A stretch of 64,000 nucleotides of DNA from Candidatus Bathyarchaeia archaeon (lineage in GTDB: Archaea; Thermoproteota; Bathyarchaeia; Bathyarchaeales; Bathycorpusculaceae), in the NCBI GenBank assembly GCA_038882655.1, contig JAVZNT010000001.1, forward strand, positions 64,001-128,000, given 5' to 3'. Position 1 is the first letter of the stretch. Each line of letters starts with the position of its first letter. A program made the translations under genes and the position numbers. Below the pieces are notes generated by a model. It searched no databases and was not told the origin of the DNA. It worked only from the letters and a program-made list of their open reading frames with translations. This document shows, in pieces, positions 4,640 to 64,000 of the stretch.

Positions 4640-5620
4640 ATGAGTAGCGATTTATCCGAAAGCCTAAAGAAAAGATACATAACGTTTAGAGATAATGGGT
4701 TGGCTAAGGTCTTTAAAGTTCAGGACGAGATAATATCCTCAATTCGGGCGTTTCTAAAAAATGAAGGCTTTATTGAGATTTTGGCGCCTATAATCGGGCC
4801 TGTAACAGATCCCGGCATTAGAGGGGCAAAGCAAGCCACCATAGACTATTATGGTGTTCCCTTCAAAGTTATGAGCAGCATGATACTTTACAAACAAATG
4901 ATTATCACAGCTTTGCCAAAGGTTTTCGCACTATCGCCAAACATACGACTAGAGCCGTTAGAAACCGTGAGAACGCGCCGTCACCTAACAGAATTTAGGC
5001 AAATAGATCTTGAAGTGGCATACGCCACATGCAAAGAGGTTATGGATTTGGGCGAAAGGATGCTTTGTTACGTGGTAGCCAGCGTGAAAAACAAGTGCTG
5101 TGAGGAGCTTGGAGAACACGGAAAAACACTGAAAGTGCCAAGATCGCCATTCAAAAGGTACACGTACAAAGAAGCCCTTGAAATTCTTGAGAGCATGGAA
5201 ATAGATGTGTCATATGGCAGTGAAATTCCATGGGAAGCAGAGGAAGCCATATCGCGAATACATAACGAACCTTTCTGGATAACAAGCTTCCCAACCACAG
5301 CGAGAAGTTTCTATTATATGGAAAGCGAAGAAGAACCTGGCGTTTTAGAAGATTTTGACCTAATATATCCTGAAGGCTTCGGTGAGGCAATTTCAGGTGG
5401 GAAGAGAGAACACCGATATAGCAAGCTTTTAGAAAGGATGTTAAAAAGTGGTGAAAATCTAGCTGATTTTGAATGGTATTTAGACATGTTAAGGAGTGGC
5501 ATCCCGCCTTCAGCAGGTTTTGGAATAGGTGTTGAAAGGCTTACAAGGTTTATTTGCGGTCTTGAAAACATCTGGGATGCTGTTCCGTTTCCTAAAGTCG
5601 CTGGAATATCCTCCCCATAA
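4640..5620 (+). CDS. asnA: Archaeal asparagine synthetase A (AsnRS-like catalytic domain only, AS-AR type)
   Basis: Class II aaRS motifs 2 and 3 (NIRLE...RHLTEFRQID; PSAGFGIGVERL); 326 aa with no anticodon-binding OB domain; PVTDPG. Confidence 0.85.
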   Translation: MSSDLSESLKKRYITFRDNGLAKVFKVQDEIISSIRAFLKNEGFIEILAPIIGPVTDPGIRGAKQATIDYYGVPFKVMSSMILYKQMIITALPKVFALSPNIRLEPLETVRTRRHLTEFRQIDLEVAYATCKEVMDLGERMLCYVVASVKNKCCEELGEHGKTLKVPRSPFKRYTYKEALEILESMEIDVSYGSEIPWEAEEAISRIHNEPFWITSFPTTARSFYYMESEEEPGVLEDFDLIYPEGFGEAISGGKREHRYSKLLERMLKSGENLADFEWYLDMLRSGIPPSAGFGIGVERLTRFICGLENIWDAVPFPKVAGISSP

Positions 5621-12319: not shown

Positions 12320-13685
12320 CTTTCGGTAAAACGGAAATTATTCCAACTAAATATATGGCAGCAGCTGCAAATCCAAAAAGCATCAGTGCAGGAAAATATT
12401 CTGGGTATCCTGGAACGAAGTATGGAGAAATGAAGTAGGAAAGGTCTCCGTAATGGGCGAAAATGAACAGCATCGTGGTGAGACTTATTGTCCAGTAAAT
12501 AAACTCCATTTTTGGGCTGTTTTTCACAGCTGCGAGAACCAAAAGGAAGGGTAAAATCCATATTAAATATTGTTCGTTAACAACGGTGTACGTGAGATAA
12601 ATTGCGAAATGAGCCACAGTGATGTAAGAGAAAATTTCAACCATGTCTAGGTTTTTCTTTCGGCTTATTTTAAAGAGTAAGAAAGCGATGGCGACACAAA
12701 TTAGTATCGGCGAGAGTGGGATGTTTGCTTCCACTCTCCATGCTTTGAATGTTTTTTCCAGTGCGTTGAGAGGTGTTAGCCCGAAAAAGATGTTGGAGCC
12801 ATACCAGTTTGGAGATGCTCTCCCCTTAAAAAGCTGCCAGGTAAGCGTGACGGCAGTTTTTAATGGTTCTTGACCGAAAATTAGGGCGAAACAAAAGTTC
12901 GTTAAAAACGTGATTAATAATGTTAAACTTACTGTAACAAGAAGATATTTTGCTGCTTCAGTCTTCTCTCCACTTTTATTATAATGCATGAAGGCGAGTA
13001 TCGGCGCAAACACGATAGGGTACATTTTAAATAGTGCAGCCAAAGCGAGTGATACCGCTGATTTGCCAAGTTTTCCTTCTAAAAAGAGCCAGACAGCCAA
13101 TAGTGTGAAGAGTGTTGGCAATGTGTCAAACATTCCCCAAACAGCTGAAATGAATATAACAAAAGGATTCAAAATCCACATGTAAGCATGCTTTCGGGCT
13201 TTTTCTTTTCCGGAAAGTTTTCCAATTATCTTAAGCAGTAGTAGAGCTATGGCTAAATCTGATAGGATTAGAGGTGTTTTAATTAGCAAGTCTAGTAGTG
13301 GTAAGTTTTCGGGCTTGAAGGAGTGATAGGCTTCACATGGATTTTTGAATGTGTACATGTCGCGCCAAAGTTCGCTGACGTTTGCTGGGAAAGTTGGATG
13401 GGCGACAGAGGCGTAGATGGGGTAGACGGTGAGTAGGCAGAATAGCCATAAGGGTGGGTAGCTCCAGAGGAACGGAGTGGCGTTTTTATCTATCCAGATT
13501 GGCGGGTTCAGCGGGTTGATGTGGTATTGGTAAGCTAATGCCTGATTTAGTCTCCATACATACATGTCATATCTTTGTTCTGTGAGAGGGGCTAGAGAAA
13601 AGCGAATTAAAACTGCGAGGGTTAATATGATGGCTGTTCTTGATTTGAGGAATCTTTTAGCCAAACTTTTCAAGTTCAAAGTCAT
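12291..13685 (-). CDS. GT-C fold membrane glycosyltransferase (GT87/DUF2029-like)
   Basis: First loop EQRYDMYVW, SYPPLW, LNPFVIFISAVWGMFD, KMYP, NEQY; many TMs. Confidence 0.8.
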   Translation of the reverse strand: MTLNLKSLAKRFLKSRTAIILTLAVLIRFSLAPLTEQRYDMYVWRLNQALAYQYHINPLNPPIWIDKNATPFLWSYPPLWLFCLLTVYPIYASVAHPTFPANVSELWRDMYTFKNPCEAYHSFKPENLPLLDLLIKTPLILSDLAIALLLLKIIGKLSGKEKARKHAYMWILNPFVIFISAVWGMFDTLPTLFTLLAVWLFLEGKLGKSAVSLALAALFKMYPIVFAPILAFMHYNKSGEKTEAAKYLLVTVSLTLLITFLTNFCFALIFGQEPLKTAVTLTWQLFKGRASPNWYGSNIFFGLTPLNALEKTFKAWRVEANIPLSPILICVAIAFLLFKISRKKNLDMVEIFSYITVAHFAIYLTYTVVNEQYLIWILPFLLVLAAVKNSPKMEFIYWTISLTTMLFIFAHYGDLSYFISPYFVPGYPEYFPALMLFGFAAAAIYLVGIISVLPKGEENAAKNS

Positions 13686-15010: not shown

Positions 15011-18000
15011 TTATGGGTCTGGGTGGATTCCGCCTTTAACAAACTCCACTGTTATTTCACTTATTGTCCCTAGAACTTCTGGTATTGTGAATGTTGGATG
15101 TTCCGGATCTGTGTAGTCTATCTCTATTATTATTGATGTTGCGCACAACGGGAAGCGCTGCAGTTCATAAATTATTTCGTTATGTAGAAACTGTGAGGCG
15201 TAGAAGGTGTCTCTAGCGCTAATTCCCCAGACTAGGAAGCCAACTGTTCCGTTTATGTCTCTGTATGTGGCGATGACCGCATAGCCAACGCCTGCGCTGC
15301 CGCTGTACGTATCTTTGCTCCAGCATGACAGTGCTATTATTTTGCTAACCCATGGTGCGTATGGGGTGAAGGGCGCCTCTGTTGTGTTTAGGCCGTAGAA
15401 GGCATCTGTGAAATCGTTATAGTATTCGGATATGTGGTTTGCTAGTGGGCCGCCAACTCCAATTATGTTGGAGCTAGCTATTGGCCATGTGTGGCACCAG
15501 TCGTCTCTTAGGGCTATTCTGTAGATGGTGTCCTTATAGTTGGGCGGCCATCCTGTTCCTGTTCCGCTAAACTTGTGTAGGAGATATGGTATGCTTATTG
15601 AGGCGTATTCCTGGAACATCATGTCGAAACCTGCATTTCCAATTTCGATTTGTTTATTCTTGAAGGCTGCTGAAACTAGGGAGGCACCTATCGAGTCTGC
15701 TGAGTGGGCGTCTCTTCCAACAGTTATCCATTCGTAGCGACCTGGGATGTATTCGCGGTATATTAGTCCGTCGCCACGATAAGGTTCGATTTCGATGGTT
15801 ATGTATGTTGTATAGTTTCCAGTTACGGTGTTGTAGACTGTTGTGAAGTTGTAGGCTATAATAACGTCTAAGTATTCTACGTGGAGGTCTTCGTGGTCCG
15901 GTCCTACTATGCGCCAGTTTACGTCAAGGTCATAGGGGTCAATTTCAGTCGTGTTTCCATTAACCGTCACATTCGCTGACGGTAGTGCCAAATTCCAGAC
16001 TGCAAGCCATGTTATGTCTTCTTTGAAGACTTTGAAGTCGTAGGCGAACGGGTTAAATTCGCCTGTTAAGCTGAAAGTGTAGTTGCCTGTAGTGTCAATG
16101 TTAGTTATGTTCAATTTACCCATTGCCGAAACCGTGTGGGCGGCACCTAACCGATCAGTAAACCCTACACTTGCACTCCAGCTTATATAGACCAAATTGT
16201 TAGCTGGCTTGTCTTCACTTTGGACTGCTAAAGATATTGGATTTGCTGTTACATTGTAGGCGAATTCTGTTTCTGTTGAATAAAGTATTTTGATCATTGT
16301 TCCTGGCAGCGGAACCTTTGATGCTGGGATCCATATGCGGCCAACCCCCGTAGTAGCGTTGACGTAGAGTTCGTAGTCGTAGGGTGTGACAACTGCTCTC
16401 AATGGTATTTTTAGTTTTCCTCCCCATAGGACCCTTTCACTGAAGGCATGATAATCTTCCCATACTGGCTCGAAGAGAACAGGCGTGTGGTCAAGATAAA
16501 TGTATAACGGAATGCCAAACTCCACCGCTAGGTAATAGTCTAATTCTGTGACATTGTAGAATTGTACCCATCTTTTAGTGTCCTTTTCAACTGCATCGCG
16601 GAGGTCCCACGGGTTGAAAACCTCCTCAAGCTGGTATCTAACTTCGATGTCAAGTGCTGCCCTTGGACCGCCAGTCATTTGTGGGTCTTTTGCATCATGA
16701 TAATCTGTTAAGCCAACCACTTCGACTCCTCTGAACTGGACTGGGTATTCTTTTCCTAACGTGAAGTCCCATTCACCAACAACGAAGGGTATGTCCGGCT
16801 CGCTGGCTGCCGGCACCATGTCTTCGTCATCAACCCATATTAAGGGTTGAAGTGATTTGTCCCATGCATCAACGCTGTAGTCAGAAAGAGTCGGCCAGAA
16901 AGCTTTCCAGCCCACATATTTTAGGTCGCTACTAATTATCTGGGCAACATCATAATAGTGAGGAACACCTGTTAAACGTTCCTCTAGCTCATATTTCCAT
17001 AGTTTGTATACAACTGTGATCCAGTCGTTTCCGTCTATAGGTATAAGCCAAGTAATATCACCCGTGGTATAGTTGATGTTGTAGTGGGTTCCCTCTTCCT
17101 TAAAGGTGCCATTCACATAAACCCGAACAGAACCCCTAACTATTGGACCGCCATAACCATCCTTAGTCACTGGAACTTGCCGTAAGTTATAGCCTTCTTG
17201 TATCCATTCTCGCATTATGCCGGGTGCAAGGTGCCATTCAGGACCGTAGCACGTTGTAAGTTGCTGGTGGAAGAAGTGGGCGTAGCTTCCATAGCTTGGC
17301 GGCGGACCAAGGTCCCACTCCTCCCGATTGCTGAATTGTATGTCAAGTGGAGAGTCAAGCTCCTTGCCAGAAATCACCTGCTTAATATCCTTGAAGATTA
17401 TAACATGCTTCTTAACCTTCTCAAAAATGAAGGTCAATACAACATCAACAATTGGCCATGTTTCATCCGGGTGATCAACAACTCCGTCTTGGTCGCTGTC
17501 AAACCAATCGTAGAGATGGGTTACTGAAAGGGCTACATAACGCCTAGGCCCATTATACAGCACTGTTAATGGCTCTGTGTAGGCGTAGCCCGTTGTCTTC
17601 CTACCACCATGAGGCGCCAAGTTAAACGGATATGGGTGACCAACCAGCCAGTCTCCCCCGTAAGCGGCCATATCGGCGAACATTGCCATTGCAAGAACAT
17701 GCCTGTCTCTATAAGTTCTATGGGTGTATCTTATGTCAATGAGCCAACCGTTCAGCCAGAGCTTAGGGTCAATGTACTCGTTGGCGAAGGGGTCCCTAGA
17801 CGTCCCAGCTTTCTGGTCGTACGTTCCAACACTGTCATAGCCTGGATATTGTAGACCAACACCCACGCCTGTTGTAACCGGGTAGTTTATCATTTCGCCG
17901 AACTTTGAAAGCCCAAAGTCTATGCTTTTTGTTGTGAATGGATAAAGCGAATAGTAGTCGCTTGTCAAGACGCCATTTACTTTTGTGTACCAGTTTGTTG

Positions 18001-54008: not shown

Positions 54009-54623
54009 TTGAAAATCGTTGAAAATGGGCTTCTTTATTGGACTGCTGTCGGCGTTTTGGCTTTACTCGTAGCTTCACCTTTCCTTAGCAAGGTTCTGGT
54101 TTATCCTCGAACAGAATTCTTTACGGAACTTTGGATTTTGGATGCTGACCATAAGACTGAAAATTATCCATTTAATGTTACGCCCAATCAACCCTACACT
54201 ATTCATTTGGGCATCGGAAACCGTTTAGGTTATTGCGCCTATTACATGGTTCAAGTGAAGTTTCGAAATCAAACGCAGCCAGAACCGTCAAGTTTCGGAC
54301 CTATTGAAGACCGTGTTCCTAGCAACTTAACCTCACTCTTCAATATTACAGCTTTTGTGGCAGACGAGCAAGTTTACGAGATTCCCTTAACCTTTTCCTT
54401 TAACTATACTTGGGATGAACAGTTTTCAAAAGTTAAGTTCTCATATTTGAGGCTTAATGGTCTATGGTTGAACATGAGCGACTACACGATTTCTTGGGAT
54501 GCTGGAAAAAGAGAGTTTCGGGGATGCTTATTTTTTGAGTTATGGCTATACAATAACGGTGCAAATGATTTTCGATATCATGGGCGTTTTGTTAGGTTAT
54601 GGCTTAACATGACGGTTTATTAA
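54009..54623 (+). CDS. DUF1616-like membrane-anchored protein
   Basis: EFFTELWIL...ENYP...LGIGN...Y.VQVK...FELW...LWLNMT pattern. Confidence 0.75.
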   Translation: MKIVENGLLYWTAVGVLALLVASPFLSKVLVYPRTEFFTELWILDADHKTENYPFNVTPNQPYTIHLGIGNRLGYCAYYMVQVKFRNQTQPEPSSFGPIEDRVPSNLTSLFNITAFVADEQVYEIPLTFSFNYTWDEQFSKVKFSYLRLNGLWLNMSDYTISWDAGKREFRGCLFFELWLYNNGANDFRYHGRFVRLWLNMTVY

Positions 54624-54662
54624 TGGCGTTTGTCATAATGTTTTAGCCATAAGTATTTCTGT

Positions 54663-54736
54663 GCCGGGGTGGCTGAGAAATTAAGCGGCGGCCTGCAGAG
54701 CCGCTTACGTTGGTGAAAATCCAACCCCCGGCTCCA
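54663..54736 (+). tRNA. tRNA-Cys(GCA) with non-canonical D and T loops, encoded CCA
   Basis: Acceptor GCCGGGG/CCCCGGC, U73, CCA. D stem GCT/AGC with loop GAGAAATTA. Anticodon arm GCGGC-CTGCAGA-GCCGC (GCA at 54695-54697). 4-nt variable loop. T arm GTTGG-TGAAAAT-CCAAC. Confidence 0.92.
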
Positions 54737-54757
54737 TACAATTTCGAGGTGTGAACT

Positions 54758-55876
54758 TTGGTTTGTAGGCGAAGTTTAGAATGGCTTAAAGAGAAGGTTA
54801 AAGATATGCGTTCATTTGAGGGTTCACTTCTTAGCTATGTAGGTTTGCCTATAGAAGCTGAAAGCTGTGATGTATTGAAGCTGGATTCGAATGAAAACTT
54901 TTTTGTGGATGCTAATTTTTTGAGGCAGATTTTTATGGAGGCTTTGGGTGATGTTGATTTAAGGCTTTATAATCCCGGTGTTATGGCGTCTTTAAAGGAA
55001 ACTTTGGGCAAGTATGTTGGTGTTCCCGGCGGATGTGTTTGTGTTGGAAGCGGCGCGGAGCATTTGATCGATTTTATTGCTCAGTCTTTTTTGGGTGCTG
55101 GCGATATGGTTGTTTCCATTGTGCCTAGCTTTTTTATGTATGGAAAGAGGGTTTCGCTTTGTGGCGCCAGCATTGCTAATGTTCCCCTTAAAGGTGATTT
55201 GTCTCTTGATGTCGATGAGATTCTAGCCAAATGCACGGATAAGACCCGACTTGTTTTTATCTGTTCGCCGAACAACCCTACAGGGAATGAGTTTAGCTGG
55301 GGTGAGGTTGAGGCTTTAGCTGATGGGTGTTCCGCTCTTATAGTTGTGGATGAGGCGTATGCAGAGTTTGGTGAAGGCTCTGCATGTCCTAATGCGGTTG
55401 AGAAGGAAAACGTTGTTGTTGTGAGGACTTTTTCTAAGGCTTTCGGTTTGGCTGGGTTGCGTTTTGGCTTTTTGGTTGCAAATGAGAAATTGGCTTCTGC
55501 GTTTTCTGAGGTTATTCCATACACTGTTGGCACTGTTGTGGCGCGTTTTATTGAAAGATTGCTTGAAAAGTGTGATGTTGTGGTAGGCTGGGTTAACGAG
55601 GTCAAAAAGGAGAGGGAGAGGTTGATAAGGGAATTGCGTTCTATTAGCGAAGTTGAAGTTTTTGATTCTAAGGCGAATTTTGTTACTTTTCGACCAGATA
55701 TGAATGCGAACCGCGTTTATAATGGGCTTCTTAAGAGAGGTGTTGTTGTCAAGAACCTTGGCGATTTGCCGGTTATTGGACACTGTTTGAGGGTTACTGT
55801 TGGGCTTCCAGAAATGAACGACAAGTTCCTCAACATGTTAAGGCAAGTTTTAAAAGAAAATGGGCACGGCCCTTAA
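54758..55876 (+). CDS. HisC/CobD-family PLP enzyme (class I/II aminotransferase fold)
   Basis: LDSNEN, SPNNPTG, DEAYAEF, RTFSKAFGLAGLRFG, LRVTVG; SD GAGGTG just after the tRNA. Confidence 0.9.
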   Translation: MVCRRSLEWLKEKVKDMRSFEGSLLSYVGLPIEAESCDVLKLDSNENFFVDANFLRQIFMEALGDVDLRLYNPGVMASLKETLGKYVGVPGGCVCVGSGAEHLIDFIAQSFLGAGDMVVSIVPSFFMYGKRVSLCGASIANVPLKGDLSLDVDEILAKCTDKTRLVFICSPNNPTGNEFSWGEVEALADGCSALIVVDEAYAEFGEGSACPNAVEKENVVVVRTFSKAFGLAGLRFGFLVANEKLASAFSEVIPYTVGTVVARFIERLLEKCDVVVGWVNEVKKERERLIRELRSISEVEVFDSKANFVTFRPDMNANRVYNGLLKRGVVVKNLGDLPVIGHCLRVTVGLPEMNDKFLNMLRQVLKENGHGP

Positions 55877-55888
55877 GGCAGCATTTTT

Positions 55889-57766
55889 ATGGGCGGAATT
55901 TGCGGCTTTTTAGATTTAGGCGATAAATCGTTACTTAAAAGAATGTCTCAAGAAATTTCACATAGAGGTTTCCACGAAGACTTTTTCGTAGACAAATATG
56001 TGGGCATGTGCTCAAGAAGCATAACCAAAGAAGATGGTTTAGGCAAAAATGAGGACGGTAGCTTACGGGTAGCCTTTGATGGCGAGATTTTCAACGTGGA
56101 AGATTTGCGAGGCGATTTAGAGAAAAGGGGGCATAGTTTTTCTTCTTCTTGCACGGCGGAATTAATAGCCCACCTTTATGAAGAACATGGCTATTCATTA
56201 GTCGATGAGCTTAGAGGAGGTTTTTCCTTCGCTTTATGGGATACCGATAAAAAATTGCTTTTGCTGGCGAGGGATAGGGAAGGCGAAAAATCGGTTTTCT
56301 ACGCTTTTCTTAATGGAAGCATCTATTTTGCGTCTGAAATAAAGCCACTTTTATGCTGCGAGGCAATAGAGAAGAAGTTAAACCCTAGCGGTTTGGACTA
56401 TTATTTTTCATGGGGGCACGTTCCAGCCCCAGAAACCCTTTTTATAGACGTGAAGAAACTTCCTCCTTCACATTTATTAATATATAATTTTGGCGATAAA
56501 AAAATAGTCTTGCATAAGTATTGGGATTTAGACCTTTCAAAAATTGAATACAGTGTTAGCGAAGAGGAGTGGTGTAAAAGAATATATAGTATGCTTGTTG
56601 AATCCGTTTCCATACGATTAAAAGAGAGCCCCTTCGGAATTCTTTTAGGCGGACTTGATTCTAGTGCAGTAGTAGCGTTAATGAAGAAGTTGACGGATAA
56701 ACCGATGAGCTCCGTAACCATAATGTTTGAAAATGAAGAATTTAACGAATCTTACTCTAAATACGTTGCTGAATGGTTAGGAATAGAAGCATATGAGAAG
56801 ACATTGTGTGCAAAGGACTTTATCCGAATAACCCAAAAATTAGCGCAAATTTTTGACGATTTGAGAATAGATCTGCTTATTACAATACCTTCTTTTTTGG
56901 CTCTTGAAACAGCTAAGGAAAAAGCTAAAACAGTGTTTACTGGAGATGGTGCTGATTGCACCTTTTGGAGTTGGGGATGGGACTTTAAACCAAGGAAGTT
57001 GAAAATGCTCTCCATTCGCTCCAGTCTTAAGATGATACGAGAGCATTCGATAAGTTCTTATGAGCTAATGAATGCATCGTTAAAAGTTTGGCATGCCTTC
57101 AAAGATGCTGTTAAGGCAAGGGTATTAACTGTGCATCTTCCGTTTGAATTGCAATCGCTTTATAGTGAACAATACTTTCATGAAGATGAACTTCAAGAAC
57201 TGCTAGGACGCAATTGCACCGTAAATGTATATTCCCCGTTTCTTGAATGTTTGATAAGTCCTGCCGACAATCTTGGGAGTAAGATGAACAAGATGCGATT
57301 AATAAATAGGAAGTTTGAAGTTATTGGAGGATGGGGTGTGGAAAGACTTGGGAATATATGCTCGCATTTTCATCTAGGACTGAGAACCCCTTTTGAAGAT
57401 CATAAGTTAAGAGAACTGGCTGCACGTATTCCACCACAATTAAAACAGCCTAACGTTTTACTTGACAAATTCATCTTTAGGAAGACGTTGTTAAAGTACT
57501 CGCTTTTACCAAAAGAGGTCGTTAAACAGAAGAAATGGGGATTCGGATGGGGACTTGGCGAAATGGCAGCTAAATGGTTTAAGGGAGAGCTAAAAGATTA
57601 TGTTGAACAAGTCGTTAATGAAGAGGCAGCTCTAATTGAACCGGTGTTAGGGAAAAACGTTGTGAAAAAATATATGTGTAAAGGTCGTCCCTTGCAGGTT
57701 TTATCGCTTGTAACTTTTATGCTTTGGTATAAGCGCTTCTTTGAACAAGATAAAGTGGTGGGATAA
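55889..57766 (+). CDS. Asparagine synthetase B-like amide ligase, lacking the N-terminal nucleophile Cys
   Basis: Starts MGGICG (canonical MCGI); HRG, FDGEIFN, ARDREGEK, FASEIK, GGLDSS, TGDGAD, RTPFED. Confidence 0.88.
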   Translation: MGGICGFLDLGDKSLLKRMSQEISHRGFHEDFFVDKYVGMCSRSITKEDGLGKNEDGSLRVAFDGEIFNVEDLRGDLEKRGHSFSSSCTAELIAHLYEEHGYSLVDELRGGFSFALWDTDKKLLLLARDREGEKSVFYAFLNGSIYFASEIKPLLCCEAIEKKLNPSGLDYYFSWGHVPAPETLFIDVKKLPPSHLLIYNFGDKKIVLHKYWDLDLSKIEYSVSEEEWCKRIYSMLVESVSIRLKESPFGILLGGLDSSAVVALMKKLTDKPMSSVTIMFENEEFNESYSKYVAEWLGIEAYEKTLCAKDFIRITQKLAQIFDDLRIDLLITIPSFLALETAKEKAKTVFTGDGADCTFWSWGWDFKPRKLKMLSIRSSLKMIREHSISSYELMNASLKVWHAFKDAVKARVLTVHLPFELQSLYSEQYFHEDELQELLGRNCTVNVYSPFLECLISPADNLGSKMNKMRLINRKFEVIGGWGVERLGNICSHFHLGLRTPFEDHKLRELAARIPPQLKQPNVLLDKFIFRKTLLKYSLLPKEVVKQKKWGFGWGLGEMAAKWFKGELKDYVEQVVNEEAALIEPVLGKNVVKKYMCKGRPLQVLSLVTFMLWYKRFFEQDKVVG

Positions 57767-57767
57767 A

Positions 57768-59117
57768 ATGAGTGCTGGAGAACATCTCAAGGTCAACGAG
57801 AATAACCACTTAGCACTTCATGAAGTTGATTTAGTTAGTCTGTGCGAGAAGTATGGCACTCCGCTTTTTGTTTTCGATGAGACTAGCTTAGTTGAAAGTT
57901 TTGAGAGGTTTAAGCGGGCTTTTGAGAGTATTTATCCAAAGGTTATGGTTTGTTATTCTATTAAAACCAACAATAACCTAGCTTTATGCAAAATACTCTT
58001 CGAAAGAGGCGCTTACGCGGAAGTTTCTTCAGAACTGGATTTGCACGTAGCTTTGAAAGCTGGATTCCACGGAGACCGAATAATTTATGATGGGCCCTTT
58101 AAGCCTACCAAGACATTGGAAAAGGCCGTTGAAAATGAGGTTCTGCTTATCAACTGTGAGTCTTTTGTTGAGTTGGAAAGGCTTAATGAAGTCGCTGAGA
58201 AGTTTAAGGTTAAGCAATCAATAGGGTTAAGGGTTAATCCTTTTAAGCGTCCAAGTTTTCTGCGAAGTTTGCATCCGAAAACTCTTTTAGAAGAGGCCGC
58301 TTTTTGTTTCCCAAGCTGTAGGTTTGGTTTTTCTATAAGCGAAGTTTATGAAGCTTTTAAATTATTGAAAAAGCTTGAAAATTTGCGTCTTGAGTGTCTT
58401 ATGACGCATCCCTATCACAGGGCGATTAGTGTTCTTATGCCCCTTTTTAAGGAAGCTCATCGGAATCTTGGCTTTGAAATTAAATATCTCAATGTTGGGG
58501 GTGGCTTTAACCCTGGCACAAGTGGTTCAACGGGAGACCTTTTGTTGGCTTTAGACCATGTCAAAAGGGGTTTAAGGATGAAGTCTACTTTAGATCAGGA
58601 GAGGCACATGAGAAGCATCGATGATGTTGCCCGAACAGTTGTAAATGAAGTTAAGCAAAACCTTGAAGGTTTGCCTGAACCAACTTTGATAACTGAGCCT
58701 GGCCGCTTTATTGTCGGTCCTTCTGGGTTGCTGCTTTTGAGGGTTGATCACGTTAAATCTGCTGGTGGTTTCAAATGGATTATTGTGAATGGTGGTACAA
58801 ACATTGTTCCAAGCTTCTATGAGAGGCGTGAAATTCTAGTTGCTAACAATGGTTCTGCTTCGGAGAAGGAGTTAGTTAATGTTGTTGGTCCGCTTTTGTA
58901 TCCTAAGGATTTTATTGCTATCAAGACGTGGCTTCCGAAGGCTAAGGAAGGGGACATACTGGCTGTTCTTGATTGCGGAGCTTATTCGCTTTCAAGTTCC
59001 ACACAGTTTCTTTACCCCAGACCGCCAGCGGTTTTGGTAAACTCGCGTGGAGATGTGTATCTAATTCGTGAAAGAGAGAGTTTTGAAGACGTAACTGCAA
59101 AGGATATAGTTCCCTAA
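57768..59117 (+). CDS. Group IV (LysA/ODC fold) PLP-dependent enzyme, atypical
   Basis: YGTPLFVFD, YSIKTN (PLP Lys), NVGGGF, EPGRFIV, GPLLYPKD (canonical GPLC), GAYS. Confidence 0.88.
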   Translation: MSAGEHLKVNENNHLALHEVDLVSLCEKYGTPLFVFDETSLVESFERFKRAFESIYPKVMVCYSIKTNNNLALCKILFERGAYAEVSSELDLHVALKAGFHGDRIIYDGPFKPTKTLEKAVENEVLLINCESFVELERLNEVAEKFKVKQSIGLRVNPFKRPSFLRSLHPKTLLEEAAFCFPSCRFGFSISEVYEAFKLLKKLENLRLECLMTHPYHRAISVLMPLFKEAHRNLGFEIKYLNVGGGFNPGTSGSTGDLLLALDHVKRGLRMKSTLDQERHMRSIDDVARTVVNEVKQNLEGLPEPTLITEPGRFIVGPSGLLLLRVDHVKSAGGFKWIIVNGGTNIVPSFYERREILVANNGSASEKELVNVVGPLLYPKDFIAIKTWLPKAKEGDILAVLDCGAYSLSSSTQFLYPRPPAVLVNSRGDVYLIRERESFEDVTAKDIVP

Positions 59118-59135
59118 CGCTTTTGGTTGGTTATT

Positions 59136-60251
59136 ATGCTTAGCTTGCGTGTTATCGCCGATTTAGAGGATTTTGAAAATTTAGGAAGCATGTGGAACAA
59201 AATATTAGCAAAGTCTTTAGATAACGATGTCTTTTCCACACGGGAATGGATCTGGTGTTGGTGGAAGCATTTTGGCAAAAAAAGAAGTTTACGAGTGCTT
59301 GTCGCTGAAGAAAATGGCGAGATTGTTGGCTTAGCCCCTTTTGCACTTACAGAATATTCTTTCTTGCGTGTTGGAAAGTTGAGGCGCATCGAGTTTATTG
59401 GTTTCCCTCATGCAGATTATAACAACTTTATTTTAGTCAGAAATCCATCTGATTGTTTAAGGCTCTTTATTGAAGGCTTAATGAAGTTTGCAGACTGGGA
59501 TTTTCTGGATTTAAGGGATATTCGCGAACAAAGTGCATCAGCAAACAGTTTACGTATGCTCCTAAACATTGAAGGAGCAAAGTTAAGGTTAACAAATGGC
59601 ACTCTTTGCCCCTGCATTAATTTGCCAAGATCCATTGAAACCTTCCAAAGCAACTTAAGTCGCAACATGCGGAGAAACCTACGGAAAAGGTTAAGGAAGC
59701 TTCGCGAAAGCTATAAAGTTGAATTTAAGACGCAGCGGGATTTTGACTCTATTGATGAGGCGATGGAAATATTTTTCAACCTCCACCAGAAACGTTGGAA
59801 ATCTAAGGGAAAGCAAGGCGCCTTCGCAGCTGAGGATTTCAGAAAGTTTCATTTGGACGTTGCAAAAGTTTTCGATAAAAAAGGTTGGCTTGACTTGCAT
59901 TTCTTAATGGCAAACGACGAGCCAGTTGCCGCAGCCTACACCTTCGACTATAACTCGAAGAAGTATGGCTATTTAACTGGTTTCGATCCTGAATTTGGGC
60001 ATTTCGGTGTTGGAAATCTGTTAAAGTTGCATCTAATTGAGGAATGCATCAAAAAGGGGTTTAGGGAGTACGATTTAACAAGGGAATTTGAACCCTATAA
60101 GGCGGAGTGGGCAACTGTTATTAGGAAAAATCTGATTGCGAGAATTGTTCGACGGGGCTTGTCCGCCAAAATGTATTGCTGGGCTTTAGAGAACAAGTTT
60201 TCACAATGGCTTTTCACTAGATTGGGTGTTCGTTTATCAGTTAGAGAATAG
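59136..60251 (+). CDS. GNAT/Fem-fold protein, CelD/BcsL (Acetyltransf_6)-like
   Basis: VFSTREW...WWKHF, VGLAP, ADYN, LSRNMRRNLRK, LHQKRW, GFDP...GVGNLL, YD.....EPYKAEW. Confidence 0.85.
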   Translation: MLSLRVIADLEDFENLGSMWNKILAKSLDNDVFSTREWIWCWWKHFGKKRSLRVLVAEENGEIVGLAPFALTEYSFLRVGKLRRIEFIGFPHADYNNFILVRNPSDCLRLFIEGLMKFADWDFLDLRDIREQSASANSLRMLLNIEGAKLRLTNGTLCPCINLPRSIETFQSNLSRNMRRNLRKRLRKLRESYKVEFKTQRDFDSIDEAMEIFFNLHQKRWKSKGKQGAFAAEDFRKFHLDVAKVFDKKGWLDLHFLMANDEPVAAAYTFDYNSKKYGYLTGFDPEFGHFGVGNLLKLHLIEECIKKGFREYDLTREFEPYKAEWATVIRKNLIARIVRRGLSAKMYCWALENKFSQWLFTRLGVRLSVRE

Positions 60252-60266
60252 CTAAATGCCACTTGG

Positions 60267-61298
60267 GTGAGTATCAGAATGACAGAATATCGCGTGATTG
60301 AAGATTCGCCGAAAGATTCATGGGATTCATTTCTACAGAAACATTCTGTTGGGAATTTTGAGCAGTGTTTTGAGTATGGCGAAATATCGAGAAAGGCTTT
60401 TCCAAAAACAAATGTTGTTAGACTAGCGTGTACGCGTGGAAACGAAGTCGCTGGTGTACTTCAAGGAACTTACTCTAAATATTTCGGGTTTGGCATGACT
60501 TTAGGCGTCATGCGTGCTCCTTTTGTGAATTTCGAAGATGAAGACGCTGTAAACATTGTGAAGAGTCTTCTTGAGAGTTTAGAAGACTATGCCAAGAGAA
60601 ACCGGATTATTGAAGTCCGTGTCTTTGTGCCCGAAGCATGGGGTTTCCACAATGTGTTTCAATCTCTTGGGTACACGGTTACTGAACAGCTGAACGAATA
60701 TATCGTGGATTTAGAGAAAGGTGTCGACGAGCTTTGGAAGGGCGTCTCCCATAACAAGAGGAAAAATATTAAAAAGGCTATGAGTCAAGGCGTAGAGGTC
60801 TTCGAATCTCGGAAAAGAGAGGATCTGTTGACTTTTTACTCTATGCTTAGGGCTGCAGAAGAAAGGGGGGGATTTACAAGCTACCCATTGTCTTGGTTTG
60901 AAGCGGCTTTGGAATTGTACAATCCAGACTTGTTAAGGGTTTTTCTTGCAAGCTGGAATGGGAAAGCTGTTTCAGGAGTTTTTACCGTTGCACATGGCAG
61001 GACTGTTTTCGCTTTGGCTGCTGGCTCGTTTAGCGAAGGCTGGAAAGTTAGACCCAACGATATTATGCACTGGAAAGTCATGGAGTGGGCTTGCCAAAAA
61101 GGATACAGCAGGTATCAGATGGGTCTAGTTTCAGAACCACCGCCGAGTGAAGGCTCGAAGGCTTGGGGAATTTGGAGATGGAAAAGGGAATGGGGTGGAA
61201 GCCTAAACAAACTTCAAGTTTACCATAAGTACTTTAAGCCTCGATACAAGCTTATTTTAAAAGCTAAAAAGATTGTAGAAAAGTTTGCTGCACGATGA
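60267..61298 (+). CDS. FemABX-like (aminoacyl-tRNA-dependent transferase fold) protein
   Basis: WDSFLQKH..GNFEQ..EY, YIVDLEKGVDELWK..SHNKRKNIKKA, PNDIMHWKVMEWACQKGY..Y.MG, GIWRWKREWGG (compare Fem G..RFK..FGG). Confidence 0.8.
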   Translation: MSIRMTEYRVIEDSPKDSWDSFLQKHSVGNFEQCFEYGEISRKAFPKTNVVRLACTRGNEVAGVLQGTYSKYFGFGMTLGVMRAPFVNFEDEDAVNIVKSLLESLEDYAKRNRIIEVRVFVPEAWGFHNVFQSLGYTVTEQLNEYIVDLEKGVDELWKGVSHNKRKNIKKAMSQGVEVFESRKREDLLTFYSMLRAAEERGGFTSYPLSWFEAALELYNPDLLRVFLASWNGKAVSGVFTVAHGRTVFALAAGSFSEGWKVRPNDIMHWKVMEWACQKGYSRYQMGLVSEPPPSEGSKAWGIWRWKREWGGSLNKLQVYHKYFKPRYKLILKAKKIVEKFAAR

Positions 61299-61347: not shown

Positions 61348-62038
61348 ATGAACATCGAACAGAAAGCGAATAATAATATTTGCACCCCACCCCGATGACG
61401 AGACCTTCGGTTGTGGAGGAACAATCGCTAGGCGAGTAAGTGAAGGATACGATGTTTTAATCGTCGTTATGACCGATGGTAGATACGCCTTCCTAAAAAT
61501 GCTAAACATTGATTCCGACCCCACTCCTGAAGAATTGAAAGAGATTAGAAAAGAAGAAGTGAAAAGAGCCACAAAAATTTTGGGAGTACCCGAAGAAAAT
61601 TTAATCTTCCTCAATTTTGAGGACGGAACCCTTCGAAACAGCATGGAAGAAGCTGAAAGAAAAGTTACCGAAATATTAAAGATGTACCGTCCAGTTGAAG
61701 TTTATTTCCCTTATAAAAGTGATGTTCATCCAGATCATCAAGCTGCGTACCACATTGTCAAAGGTGCCGTTGCAAGAGCTGGTTTCCCGATAAATGGCTA
61801 TCAGTATTCCACATTTCATAAGTATATGCGCCTAGGTCCGATTATTGATAGGACACTGGGCATTATTAGGCGTAATATAATTCGAGTCGATGTTTCAAAA
61901 TTTCTTTCAAAAAAGGAAGCAGCCATTAAGGAGTTCAAAAGTGAACTATCGATCATATCAAACGTCCAGAAAAATCCTCTTATAAAAGCCAAAGATATCA
62001 AAAATTATTTGAAAAGTAAAGAGCTGTTTTTAAAATAG
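61348..62038 (+). CDS. PIG-L/LmbE family deacetylase; apparent 1-nt frameshift just after the start
   Basis: The frame of ORF 61469-62038 extends upstream through KRIIIFAPHPDDETFGCGG but has no in-frame ATG/GTG/TTG. ATG at 61348 is one base out of frame. Downstream motifs TDG, RKEE, FEDG, HPDH. Confidence 0.85.
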
Positions 62039-62089: not shown

Positions 62090-63142
62090 ATGATAAACGT
62101 TGGAATTATTGGCCTTGGCCATATGGGTATACTTCACTTAATGAATTGCCGACATATTGATGGCGTTAAAGTTGTTGCTGTAGCTGACAAGTCTAAAGGA
62201 GCCTTAAAAAAGGCTGAACTTTTTGGTGTGAAAGCTTTTTTCACAGATTATCAAGATTTATTGAAGGGACCTCCTAAGGTTGATACAGTCATTATTGCTT
62301 TGCCTAATTTTATGCATTTTGAGAGCATTCAGAGCGCGCTAGAAGCAGGTGTTGATGTTTTTGTAGAAAAACCGTTGGCAAACACCGTTGAAGAATGCGA
62401 GAAAATCATTAAGCTTGTCGAAAAAAGTGGCAGAAAATTAATGGTAGGTCATAATATGCGATTTATTGAGGCAGTTGCGAAAATGAAGGGGGCCATAGAT
62501 AGAGGACATATTGGCGATGTAGAGGCAATTACACTTGAACAGATATTAAATGGACCCTTTGCTCACGGTGCAATTCCTAGGCCCGTGGCGGAATGGTGGT
62601 TCGATCCTAAACGGGCAGGGGGTGGAGTTTTACTGGACTTGGGATATCACATGCTTGATTTGTTTCGTTTCTTTGTCGGGGAAGATCCAGAAGTGATATT
62701 TTCATATTTAAGCTACAAATTTAACTTACCAACGGAAGACGGCGCAATTGTTATACTACGATCCCCCGTTTCAGGTGCAAGGGGAATAGTCAACGTTGGT
62801 TGGTTTCAAAAATCCGTTTTCCCGGAATACAATTTCCGCGTAGTTCTTCATGGTTGCGCAGGCTTCATTTCCAGTGAAAACCTTGCACCGAGAAACATTT
62901 ACTTTCATGCAATTAAAGAAGGAACGAAAAATATTCTGCGGAAAACTTTCGGGAGGAAAATAAAGCCTTTATCTTGGTCTTACTATTACGAAGCCTATTA
63001 TAAAGAACTCCAAAGCTTTTTCAGTTGTGTAAGGAATGACTCGGAACCGCCTGTTTCAGCTGTTGATGGCCTAAAGACCGTGGAGCTTATCGAGAAGGTC
63101 TACAAAAAGTTTGGTAAAAAAGAACCTCGACGGGACGTATAG
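62090..63142 (+). CDS. Gfo/Idh/MocA family NAD(P)-dependent oxidoreductase
   Basis: GIIGLGHMG, VEKPLA, VGHNMRF, GGGVLLDLGYH. Confidence 0.93.
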   Translation: MINVGIIGLGHMGILHLMNCRHIDGVKVVAVADKSKGALKKAELFGVKAFFTDYQDLLKGPPKVDTVIIALPNFMHFESIQSALEAGVDVFVEKPLANTVEECEKIIKLVEKSGRKLMVGHNMRFIEAVAKMKGAIDRGHIGDVEAITLEQILNGPFAHGAIPRPVAEWWFDPKRAGGGVLLDLGYHMLDLFRFFVGEDPEVIFSYLSYKFNLPTEDGAIVILRSPVSGARGIVNVGWFQKSVFPEYNFRVVLHGCAGFISSENLAPRNIYFHAIKEGTKNILRKTFGRKIKPLSWSYYYEAYYKELQSFFSCVRNDSEPPVSAVDGLKTVELIEKVYKKFGKKEPRRDV

Positions 63143-63146
63143 AAAA

Positions 63147-64000
63147 TTGGGCGACATTGTAGGTTTAGTCCGAACACTAGACTCAAAAGAGGAAATAAAA
63201 AGTTCCATAGGAAAAGCCCTCGACCTCATAAATTTTAAACCAAAGGGTCGTGTAAAAGTTATAGACATCAAGGTTAACTTGTGTTATTATTGGCATGCTT
63301 CTACGGGTTGCACAACAGACCCCCGGGTTGTTAGTGCGATAATAGACTGTGTGCGTGAACGGTATGGTGAGAACGTTCGCATTCGAGTTGTTGAGGCCGA
63401 TGGAACTGCAATGAGAACAAAATATGCCTTTCTGATGCTGGGCTATGAAAAGCTAGCCAAGGAGAAAAATGTGGAACTTTTTAACCTCTCGGAAGACGAG
63501 GTACGTGAAGAAAAGGCTTATGTAAATGGGCATGAAATCCGATTCCAAATACCTACGTCGCTTTTAAAATCTGATCTTTTTATTAATGTGCCAAAACTGA
63601 AAACTCTTAGGGAAACCGGATTCTCATGTGCCCTCAAAAATATTTATGGTTGTATAGCCTATCCCAGGAAGATAATTTATCATCCCATTTTAGATGAAGC
63701 AATCGTTGGAATAAACAAGATACTGCAGCCAAACCTCACGATAGTTGACGGTATTATTGCCCTTGGACGTTTTCCAATTAAGCTTGGGCTTATTATGGCT
63801 GGTAGAGATCCATTTTCTATTGACTGGGTTGCCGCGAAAATAATGGGTTTTAATCCTTCAAAAGTTAAGTTCTTGAAGATCGCTATAAAAGAGAATGTTG
63901 GAAGTTTAAATGGTCTTCAAGTTCAAGGAGACGATATCATTTTTTTCCGGAAATCCTTTCCTAAAGTAGGCTTATTTTCGTCTAAGCGTTGGTGGAATTT
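63147..64000 (+). CDS. DUF362 family protein, 3' end outside the window
   Basis: Manual translation from TTG at 63147: ...IKVNLCYYW...TTDPRVV...VVEADG...FINVPKLKT...CALKNIYGC...IVDGIIAL...DPFSID. Confidence 0.85.
   Translation, partial: MGDIVGLVRTLDSKEEIKSSIGKALDLINFKPKGRVKVIDIKVNLCYYWHASTGCTTDPRVVSAIIDCVRERYGENVRIRVVEADGTAMRTKYAFLMLGYEKLAKEKNVELFNLSEDEVREEKAYVNGHEIRFQIPTSLLKSDLFINVPKLKTLRETGFSCALKNIYGCIAYPRKIIYHPILDEAIVGINKILQPNLTIVDGIIALGRFPIKLGLIMAGRDPFSIDWVAAKIMGFNPSKVKFLKIAIKENVGSLNGLQVQGDDIIFFRKSFPKVGLFSSKRWWN

Follow-up and report, generated by a model that had tools for sequence, protein, structure and literature searches.

What is a transfer RNA (tRNA) for cysteine, with an elbow unlike that of every other tRNA in its genome, doing in the middle of an archaeal gene cluster of surface-glycan or exopolysaccharide (EPS) type? 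The 64,000-nucleotide (nt) stretch of Bathyarchaeia DNA analysed here, which we call the window, is C1:64001-128000 of an assembly (G000) of 1.02 Mb in 27 contigs, 84% complete and with 44% G+C, and the sequencing runs that hold its sequence are hot-spring metagenomes. ARAGORN predicts a single tRNA in these 64 kb, a tRNA-Cys(GCA) at 54663-54736 on the forward strand, which a sequence-only reading had proposed to be charged but diverted from the ribosome. The best reading of our results is that of a second, specialised cysteine tRNA that belongs to the cluster in which it lies. By analogy with staphylococci, we give a probability of roughly two in three to this tRNA being charged by cysteinyl-tRNA synthetase (CysRS) and giving up its cysteine not to the ribosome but to a Fem-type transferase.

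Results

Intact stems and an altered elbow

The Rfam model RF00005 matches the window tRNA with 54.4 bits (gathering score 29, E 6.1e-09). Its acceptor stem is GCCGGGG/CCCCGGC, followed by U73 and an encoded CCA, and its anticodon loop is CUGCAGA, with the anticodon GCA and with G37; the tRNA-Cys hallmarks named in the sequence-only reading are thus borne out by the letters themselves and by ARAGORN and Rfam. The same goes for the elbow features it had listed: the D loop, AGAAAUU, lacks G18G19, the T stem, GUUGG/CCAAC, contains U50-A64 and U51-A63, and in the T loop, UGAAAAU, G55 and A56 replace U and C while U54 and A58 are retained. The variable loop has 4 nt. Every stem had furthermore been described as perfectly paired, which holds for 20 of the 21 pairs; the fourth D-stem pair is a G13-A22 mismatch next to a D stem of three base pairs, as in the canonical tRNA-Cys of this genome.

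The canonical elbow, G18G19 together with U54-U55-C56, is absent from the window tRNA and present in all 25 other tRNAs of the genome, with a D-loop GG in 25/25 (by script) and a T loop TTC[A/G]A in 25/25 (read by eye). The stretch 54663-54736 is also covered, with 0 differing letters, by contigs of two further hot-spring samples (X2 and X4) that belong to two other studies, which speaks against an artefact of assembly.

Within 54572-54839, three metagenome runs show a summed contig depth that is several-fold higher at the tRNA than in its flanks, and at either border of the tRNA the contigs of those runs pass into unrelated sequence. Relatives that occur together seem to have the deviant tRNA in common, set in different flanks.

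A canonical tRNA-Cys and a single CysRS in the same genome

The window tRNA does not stand in for a missing tRNA-Cys. Two of the 26 tRNAs that ARAGORN finds in G000 are tRNA-Cys(GCA), and the second, at C3:51691-51764, is the separate canonical copy that the sequence-only reading had proposed to look for, with GG in its D loop, G51-C63 in its T stem and UUCAACU as its T loop. A canonical tRNA-Cys is likewise present in all 12 genomes in which we found the deviant type, the copy in G002 being cut at a contig end. The two G000 copies are 78% identical, and their acceptor stems and anticodon loops are equal. That the changes were confined to the D and T loops and the elongation-factor contact pairs, as the same reading had it, proved too narrow: pairs 12-23 and 29-41 show compensatory differences between the two copies, the variable loop has 4 nt in the window tRNA versus 5 in the canonical one, and the inferred 15-48 pair (in our own numbering) is G-C versus A-U.

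Charging is likely to fall to CysRS, of which G000 has one (C9:2790-4172; 522.9 bits against a cut-off of 340), since a profile search of the genome did not find SepRS, its best match scoring 89.2 bits against a cut-off of 380.65. The SepRS route, which the sequence-only reading had kept as an option, was rejected for lack of a match above that cut-off. CysRS recognises the GCA anticodon, the discriminator U73 and G37, and in the window tRNA all of these, as well as the acceptor stem, are identical to those of the canonical copy.

A conserved and covarying family

The deviant type was found in 12 genomes, 11 of them from at least five families of one order and the twelfth a metagenome-assembled genome labelled Aenigmatarchaeota. 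Six belong to one family, f1 (G000, G002, G275, G396, G394 and G316); the others are G056 (f2), G038 (f3), G068 (f6), G132 and G136 (f7), and the Aenigmatarchaeota-labelled G641 (locus L073). BLAST of 61 relatives returned deviant copies in G002, G056 and G038, at 89-92% identity; all other full-length tRNA-Cys matches were canonical copies. A pattern scan of a 401-genome sample of the order added G275, G396 and G394, a strict scan of a 185,579-species collection added G641, and inspection of the surroundings of FemAB orthologues added G132, G136, G068 and G316.

In the order sample the loose pattern matched 61 of the 401 genomes, with six true cases (G000, G275, G396, G394, G056 and G038). 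ARAGORN on 30 loose-scan loci (L033-L062) gave no tRNA-Cys and one unrelated tRNA-Gly, and the other matches were judged from their matched strings alone. A recurrent motif in genus g17 was not called as a tRNA and was set aside as probably protein-coding, and of the seven stretches from the strict scan one Bacteroidota match was discarded as a chance hit that is no tRNA.

Altogether, at least 10 of the 401 sampled genomes of the order carry the deviant type, a lower bound because the refined pattern was not applied order-wide, and one in which four of the ten were found beside FemAB genes. In a class-wide sample it occurs in 4/401 genomes, all of the same order, with no control matches, and in 0/233 genomes of the other orders of the class. 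The deviant tRNA is not the norm of the lineage, in line with the earlier proposal.

Neither is it the product of random decay, as the sequence-only reading had also argued. Of the 240 stem cells in the 12-member alignment, 239 hold standard pairs, and seven of the 20 pairs show both-sided, compensatory changes (4-69, 10-25, 12-23, 27-43, 28-42, 29-41 and 31-39), although in G056 and G136 MAFFT places the 3' side of 27-43 one column off, so that the G-U count of this pair is slightly overstated. None of 500 column shuffles reaches the observed score, and slid registers also fall far below it; for the eight closest members all 160 stem cells are paired, with four compensatory pairs, and one of 500 shuffles reaches the score. 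These shuffle counts are not probabilities, because the member genomes are related. Even so, the compensatory changes in seven pairs show that the cloverleaf is under selection.

The T arm is the least variable part of the family. In 12/12 members its stem consists of G49-C65, U50-A64, U51-A63 (one U-G), G52-C62 and G53-C61, where canonical copies have G51-C63 and where 49-65 remains G-C. The T loop is UGAAAAU in six members, UGAAAGU in two, and UGAAACU, UGCAAAU, UUCAAGU and UUCAAAU in one each, so that G55 is found in 10/12 and A56 in 9/12. Five of the 12 D loops lack GG. G34, C35, A36, G37 and U73 are invariant in all 12, and the CysRS-type acceptor stem is kept across the members, apart from one C3-A70 mismatch in G068.

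It had further been suggested that A56 could pair with a U of the D loop. One D-loop column could indeed form a Watson-Crick pair with position 56 in nine of the 12 members, as U-A in eight and as G-C in G316, which hints at tertiary 19-56 covariation; the register is uncertain in G056, G136 and G068.

Some individual copies stand apart. G275 carries a second, degenerate deviant tRNA-Cys within its cluster, at L066:12225-12296 on the minus strand and between the lysA-like gene and an unannotated open reading frame (ORF) of 302 aa. Its T loop reads UGCAAAU, its acceptor stem has two A-C mismatches and its T stem one G-A mismatch, a picture of what decay of such a tRNA looks like. In G641 (L073:1370-1443), C33 replaces the near-universal U33, giving the anticodon loop UCGCAGA, and the G002 tRNA (L063, G002:C29 ~15801-16793) carries one additional A behind position 9 as well as a G-U pair in its acceptor stem.

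Linkage to Fem-fold genes

The sequence-only reading had pointed to Fem-like genes as possible neighbours of the tRNA in relatives, and this is what we observe: in nine of the 12 genomes the contig of the tRNA also bears a Fem-fold gene, no more than 10 kb away. The arrangement varies. In G000, G038, G275, G132, G068 and G136 the tRNA sits directly upstream of a hisC-like gene within a conserved cluster, with gaps of 4-32 nt by ORF calls. In G396, G641 and G316, an Acetyltransf_6 gene lies directly downstream of the tRNA and there is no hisC-like neighbour; a radical-SAM/SPASM gene is found near the tRNA in the first two of these. G316 has two identical deviant copies on its contig C4 (L140:10978-11051 and 13141-13214; T loop UGCAAAU, D loop AGUACGA), 2.1 kb apart, which flank the Acetyltransf_6 gene and a gene of 235 aa, and an ATP-grasp gene follows the second copy. 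Viewed from the side of the enzymes, FemAB orthologues (at least 224.8 bits) occur in 14 of the 401 sampled genomes of the order, and seven of these carry the deviant tRNA.

The acceptor stem of the deviant type is of the form GCCGGGG (GCCAGGG in G132), versus GGTGGGG in the host tRNA-Cys of G132 and GCUCGGG in that of G641 (L152). Because of this difference between the deviant and host stems, the sequences suggest joint transfer of tRNA and cluster or, in the case of G641, a misbinned contig.

Several loci add detail to this picture. G097 has the syntenic cluster with only a 5' tRNA-Cys half, up to the anticodon, directly upstream of its hisC-like gene (L123 ~5527-5563), which may be what a deletion left behind or else, with lower likelihood, one half of a split tRNA. 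At G316:C4:79592-79645, 4.4 kb from the deviant copies, lies a 54-nt 3' fragment of a canonical-type tRNA-Cys that looks like the attachment-site relic of an integrative element. Six further FemAB loci with 38-57% identity (L122, L124, L125, L126, L127 and L129, in G327, G391, G267, G312, G407 and G346) have unrelated surroundings, and no tRNA lies closer than 10 kb to them. Among them, weak radical-SAM/SPASM relatives (26-28% identity) occur near FemAB in G327, G312 and G407, the G346 locus retains DUF362, GFO/IDH/MocA and DUF1616 neighbours, and G327 holds an additional FemAB fragment interrupted by TGA.

Two candidate aminoacyl-tRNA-dependent transferases

The window holds two Fem-like genes in tandem (Table 1). 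The second is the only FemAB locus in G000; PF02388 matches its product in three stretches and above threshold, which places it in the FemAB family, whereas the same Pfam model matched in 0/4 archaeal control genomes. It aligns with S. aureus FemX (6snr; E 4e-17) over residues 10-223 and 301-405, that is, over both domains, and by sequence with W. viridescens FemX (E 5.5e-11). An invariant W-R-W-K stretch aligns with an aromatic-Lys pair of S. aureus FemX, which we take to be catalytic, although a look-up in PMC2655667 gave no confirmation.

For the Acetyltransf_6 protein encoded just upstream, a sequence search of the PDB returned no matches. Nevertheless, its group is homologous to the FemAB group over the full length, with an hhalign probability of 96.6% (E 4.8e-10, 296 columns), and its AlphaFold2 model has a predicted local distance difference test score of 86.9 and a predicted template modelling score of 0.85. 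The top 11 PDB chains that Foldseek finds with this model are all FemX, FemA or Sbb17/Sba18 aminoacyl-tRNA-dependent transferases, the best being W. viridescens FemX (E 5.8e-13, template modelling scores 0.64/0.70), ahead of the peptide synthases Sbb17/Sba18 and of FemX and FemA from S. aureus. They are followed by a Bacteroides protein of unknown function and then by MprF aminoacyl-lipid synthases interleaved with tandem-GNAT acetyltransferases, with MshD at rank 33. Judging from sequence and predicted fold, it is credible that both proteins are users of aminoacyl-tRNA.

The gene cluster around the tRNA

The tRNA and its flanking genes all lie on the same strand with short spacers (Table 1). 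DUF1616-like homologues are found at the cluster edge in G038, G275, G396, G394, G056, G068, G132 and G316. The HisC-like gene directly follows the tRNA in G000, G002 (truncated), G038, G275, G394, G132, G068 and G136; as it is the genome's best hisC match, its product may have a housekeeping role. The LysA-like decarboxylase is conserved in G038, G275, G068, G136, G097 and G132, and the amidotransferase has no homologue in the other loci compared and was found in G000 only. The PIG-L-type de-N-acetylase would, by its family, bare the amine on a sugar of the N-acetylglucosamine type. Beyond the window end (L069:13083-19012) follow two GT2 glycosyltransferases, a second GFO/IDH/MocA oxidoreductase, an XrtA-type polysaccharide deacetylase (DUF3473), a methyltransferase and a GH5 protein.

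Table 1. The window tRNA and the genes of the cluster that lie in the window.
Feature	Coordinates	Strand	Evidence and remarks
tRNA-Cys(GCA), deviant	54663..54736	+	ARAGORN; Rfam; family covariation; identical sequence in two other samples
DUF1616-like	54009..54623	+	PF07760 30.3 bits, just under the cut-off of 31.6; ends 39 nt before the tRNA
HisC-like class I/II aminotransferase	54758..55876	+	PF00155 158.9 bits; TIGR01141 287.8 vs 276.55; ORF call starts 21 nt past the tRNA
Asparagine-synthase-type glutamine amidotransferase	55889..57766	+	PF00733, PF13537; best NCBIfam match TIGR03108 (XrtA/PEP-CTERM amidotransferase) 290.3 bits, below cut-off (816.9)
LysA-like decarboxylase (Orn/DAP/Arg family), dependent on pyridoxal phosphate (PLP)	57741..59117	+	PF02784, PF00278; TIGR01048 255.3 bits, below cut-off
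Acetyltransf_6, Fem-type double-GNAT fold	59127..60251	+	PF13480 131.3 bits; candidate aminoacyl-tRNA transferase
FemAB-family transferase	60267..61298	+	PF02388 85.8 bits vs 24; candidate user of the tRNA
PIG-L/LmbE-type de-N-acetylase	61469..62038	+	PF02585 64.4 bits; best NCBIfam match BshB1, 69.9 vs 182.5
GFO/IDH/MocA sugar oxidoreductase	62090..63142	+	PF01408, PF02894
DUF362 protein	63111..64000	+	Pfam; continues past the window end

Discussion

Here we describe an archaeal tRNA-Cys that coexists with a canonical copy, is conserved with covarying stems and is repeatedly found beside genes for Fem-fold proteins. We favour the reading of a cysteine donor dedicated to the cluster, because the CysRS identity set is intact, because the linkage to Fem-fold genes recurs in several arrangements, and because the altered parts, the elbow and the 51-63 pair, are those that in S. 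aureus set non-proteogenic tRNA-Gly apart from the translational pool. This would carry the staphylococcal principle over to a different domain of life, amino acid and product, with the tRNA gene built into the cluster that it serves.

How far does this analogy reach? In staphylococci, extra non-proteogenic tRNA-Gly isoacceptors (NP1-3) exist beside the canonical ones, are charged by the same synthetase, as we propose for the archaeal tRNA, and supply the Fem-family transferases FmhB, FemA and FemB, according to PMC7826273; in the archaeal cluster, too, a Fem-family gene is at hand as a candidate partner. In the tRNA-Gly genes described there, TGC or TGT replaces the TTC of the T loop, so that the change of U55 to G is common to both systems (TGA or TGC in the archaeal tRNA-Cys, 10/12 members). 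Alterations of the D and T arms, the parts read by the Fem enzyme, are shared as well. Weak A-U or U-A pairs in the elongation-factor-contacting part of the T stem are U50-A64 and U51-A63 in the archaeal tRNA, and A49-U65, U50-A64 and A51-U63 in the staphylococcal tRNAs (PMC7826273). There are also clear differences. The host is an archaeon and not a Firmicute, the amino acid is cysteine and not glycine, and the cluster is of a glycan or EPS type without peptidoglycan. Moreover, the archaeal tRNA gene is embedded in a biosynthetic cluster and seems to move with it. In the archaeal tRNA the weakening is limited to pair 51-63, as opposed to 49-65 and 51-63 in staphylococci (PMC7826273), and A56 and the possible U19-A56 re-pairing are archaeal only. 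The archaeal tRNA-Cys is an analogue of the staphylococcal tRNA-Gly, not a homologue.

In the mechanism that we propose, the tRNA would be co-transcribed with the cluster, being separated from its neighbours by 39 nt upstream and 21 nt downstream, and the single CysRS would charge it. The cysteine of the charged tRNA would then be taken over by one or both of the Fem-fold transferases whose genes follow within a few kb, the FemAB-family and the Acetyltransf_6 protein, and used to acylate an amine on a sugar-derived intermediate, plausibly bared by the PIG-L deacetylase. The altered elbow (G55, A56 and the lack of G18G19) and the weak U51-A63 pair may shield the tRNA from aEF1A and the ribosome, label it for the transferase, or do both. 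As a consequence, decoration of the glycan would spare the translational pool of Cys-tRNA.

Several findings weigh against this proposal. None of the runs that hold the stretch is recorded as RNA; two runs bear the label metatranscriptomic together with the flag 'probably DNA', and since they supply contigs they do not speak to transcription. The cluster-linked tRNAs of G136 and G068 keep a canonical UUCAA T loop, so G55 and A56 are not obligatory, and in seven of the 12 members a GG directly follows A14, out of its usual register, that might replace G18G19. Of the T-stem pairs only 51-63 differs from the canonical copy, and the rules for EF-Tu and the T stem are bacterial ones. The amino-acid specificity of the transferases is not readable from their sequences. 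Furthermore, the tRNA and the enzymes do not always go together. A search of the whole assemblies of G002, G394 and G056, which are 80, 80 and 69% complete, gave no Fem-fold gene; contig ends cut the loci of G394 and G056 at 1.9 and 0.7 kb downstream of the tRNA, and in G002, a relative of the same genus, only a truncated hisC-like ORF of 298 aa follows the tRNA, in what looks like an eroded locus. FemAB-group orthologues were not found in G396 and G641, which have Acetyltransf_6 types only, and conversely half of the 14 genomes with FemAB (G097, with its remnant, and the six with unrelated FemAB neighbourhoods: G327, G391, G267, G312, G407 and G346) have no intact linked tRNA.

A bolder version of the dedicated-donor reading takes cluster and tRNA as a self-contained, transferable donor cassette, in which an insulated pair of tRNA and Fem enzyme would put cysteine on an amino sugar by a tRNA-dependent route. 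Its product would be a thiol-decorated surface glycan or a Cys-glucosamine thiol similar to bacillithiol or mycothiol, with Fem replacing BshC/MshC, and the re-pairing of the elbow from G19-C56 to U19-A56 (with G-C restored in G316) would be the mark that separates the tRNA from translation. In bacillithiol and mycothiol synthesis, a glycosyltransferase, the LmbE/PIG-L deacetylase BshB/MshB, the cysteine-adding BshC/MshC and the tandem-GNAT enzyme MshD act, and the archaeal cluster has its counterparts in glycosyltransferases, a BshB1-like PIG-L deacetylase, the proposed cysteine donor and enzymes of a tandem-GNAT fold. The likeness is incomplete, as the deacetylase stays below equivalog level for BshB1 (Table 1), cysteine would come from a tRNA instead of through an ATP-dependent ligase, and the many extra sugar-modifying genes point to a polymer. 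We consider this version in its entirety unlikely.

Could the tRNA be an ordinary isoacceptor after all? An extra tRNA-Cys might ride on a mobile cluster, comparable to the tRNAs carried by phages and islands, with its odd elbow tolerated by the ribosome and aEF1A. In favour of this, its anticodon and CysRS identity set do not differ from those of the canonical copy, G136 and G068 have canonical T loops, and the patchy distribution of the cluster together with acceptor stems unlike those of the host tRNA-Cys in G132 and G641 speaks for transfer with the cluster. Such a tRNA, however, brings no new anticodon. A demand for extra cysteine by cysteine-rich cluster proteins was considered and rejected: with a cysteine content of 1.53% versus 1.37% genome-wide these proteins are not rich in cysteine, and an extra translational supply is therefore no obvious need. 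The T arm, moreover, is the most conserved part of the family and yet exactly where it departs from all 25 other tRNAs of the genome, the departures match those of the staphylococcal non-proteogenic tRNAs (PMC7826273), and the tight, repeated adjacency to Fem-fold genes would be left unexplained. We therefore think an isoacceptor function rather improbable, though it is the strongest of the rival explanations.

Somewhat less probable still is that the tRNA takes part in some other tRNA-dependent step or bears a residue that is not plain cysteine, through a PLP enzyme that modifies the tRNA-bound residue, or through mischarging, before transfer. The PLP-dependent HisC-like gene directly after the tRNA in eight genomes invites this idea, the more so as SepCysS, a PLP enzyme, converts a tRNA-bound amino acid (PMC5424206). 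The change in the elbow could then be an identity mark for such an enzyme. On the other hand, G396, G641 and G316 have the Acetyltransf_6 gene where the hisC-like neighbour would be, and G000 has no SepRS above the cut-off. No action of HisC-type enzymes on aminoacyl-tRNA is known.

We see little chance that the element is no carrier of an amino acid at all but a tRNA-shaped cis element in the operon transcript, such as a processing site for RNase P/Z, or the att relic of an integrative element. Very short spacers separate it from the genes on either side, and G316, with its two identical copies 2.1 kb apart and an att-like 3' fragment of tRNA-Cys 4.4 kb away, would suit such an origin. A processing signal, however, would have no need of the invariant G34, C35, A36, G37 and U73 or of the conserved acceptor stem, and what is altered is the elbow, the very part of a tRNA that RNase P reads. 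For an att relic, the tRNA lies inside the cluster and not at its edge, and no integrase was noticed among the annotated neighbours. A decaying duplicate of tRNA-Cys, finally, is very improbable: deviant D and T loops could be products of decay and true decayed copies do exist (the second G275 copy and the G097 half), but these look quite different, whereas the family has nearly all of its stem cells paired across at least five families, a nearly invariant T arm, the same sequence in independent samples, and seven covarying pairs that also argue against a pseudogene spread by one recent transfer.

Returning to the dedicated cysteine donor, its presumed partner enzymes have relatives in known systems. 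The FemABX proteins (W. viridescens FemX, S. aureus FmhB and FemA) match the FemAB-family protein by sequence and share the fold of the Acetyltransf_6 protein. Identity in the structural alignments is 10-14%, the archaeal proteins lack the coiled-coil insert, and their acceptor cannot be a murein precursor. Natural-product relatives of FemABX are Sbb17/Sba18, PacB, VlmA and DhpH, as listed in PMC12945691. A further resemblance is to the bacterial XrtA/PEP-CTERM EPS loci, whose FemAB-type, amidotransferase, PLP decarboxylase and deacetylase families are resembled by four proteins of the cluster. These families are the best or listed NCBIfam matches, all below their curated cut-offs: TIGR03019 (FemAB-type) with 72.1 vs 260.35, TIGR03099 (decarboxylase) with 137.1 vs 478.45, TIGR03006 (deacetylase, here that of the polysaccharide deacetylase beyond the window) with 261.1 vs 276.2, and TIGR03108 as given in Table 1.

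We found no report in the literature of a dedicated tRNA for XrtA/PEP-CTERM loci, nor of archaeal or Bathyarchaeia Fem transferases with a dedicated tRNA or of a non-proteinogenic tRNA-Cys, nor any paper that connects Bathyarchaeia or archaea with Fem transferases or non-proteinogenic tRNAs. According to PMC7826273, detection of non-proteogenic tRNAs had until then been limited to S. aureus and S. epidermidis, with glycine as the amino acid and peptidoglycan as its destination, and in the main text of PMC5424206 (Mukai et al. 2017) the words T-loop, D-loop and FemAB do not occur; the supplements of both papers might list tRNA-Cys variants. If true, the dedicated-donor reading would add an independent case, archaeal and with cysteine, of a tRNA reserved for non-ribosomal chemistry that has converged on the change of U55 to G, and it would show that partitioning of the aminoacyl-tRNA pool by re-shaping of the elbow is a general solution. 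It would further point to a product in Bathyarchaeia, on the cell surface or a small molecule, that bears cysteine, open a first functional approach to the many uncharacterised Fem-like genes of EPS loci, and provide a natural example of a tRNA orthogonal to translation.

Further observations on the genome

ARAGORN places introns in eight of the 26 tRNA genes of G000 (on C1, C6, C7, C8, C11, C18 and C24), several of them at non-canonical positions, and its amino-acid labels are doubtful for some of these intron-bearing genes. Within the window, an eL15-Euryarchaeota leader is predicted by Rfam at 1801-1846 on the minus strand (40.8 bits, gathering score 33.7), in a genome of Bathyarchaeia and not of Euryarchaeota.

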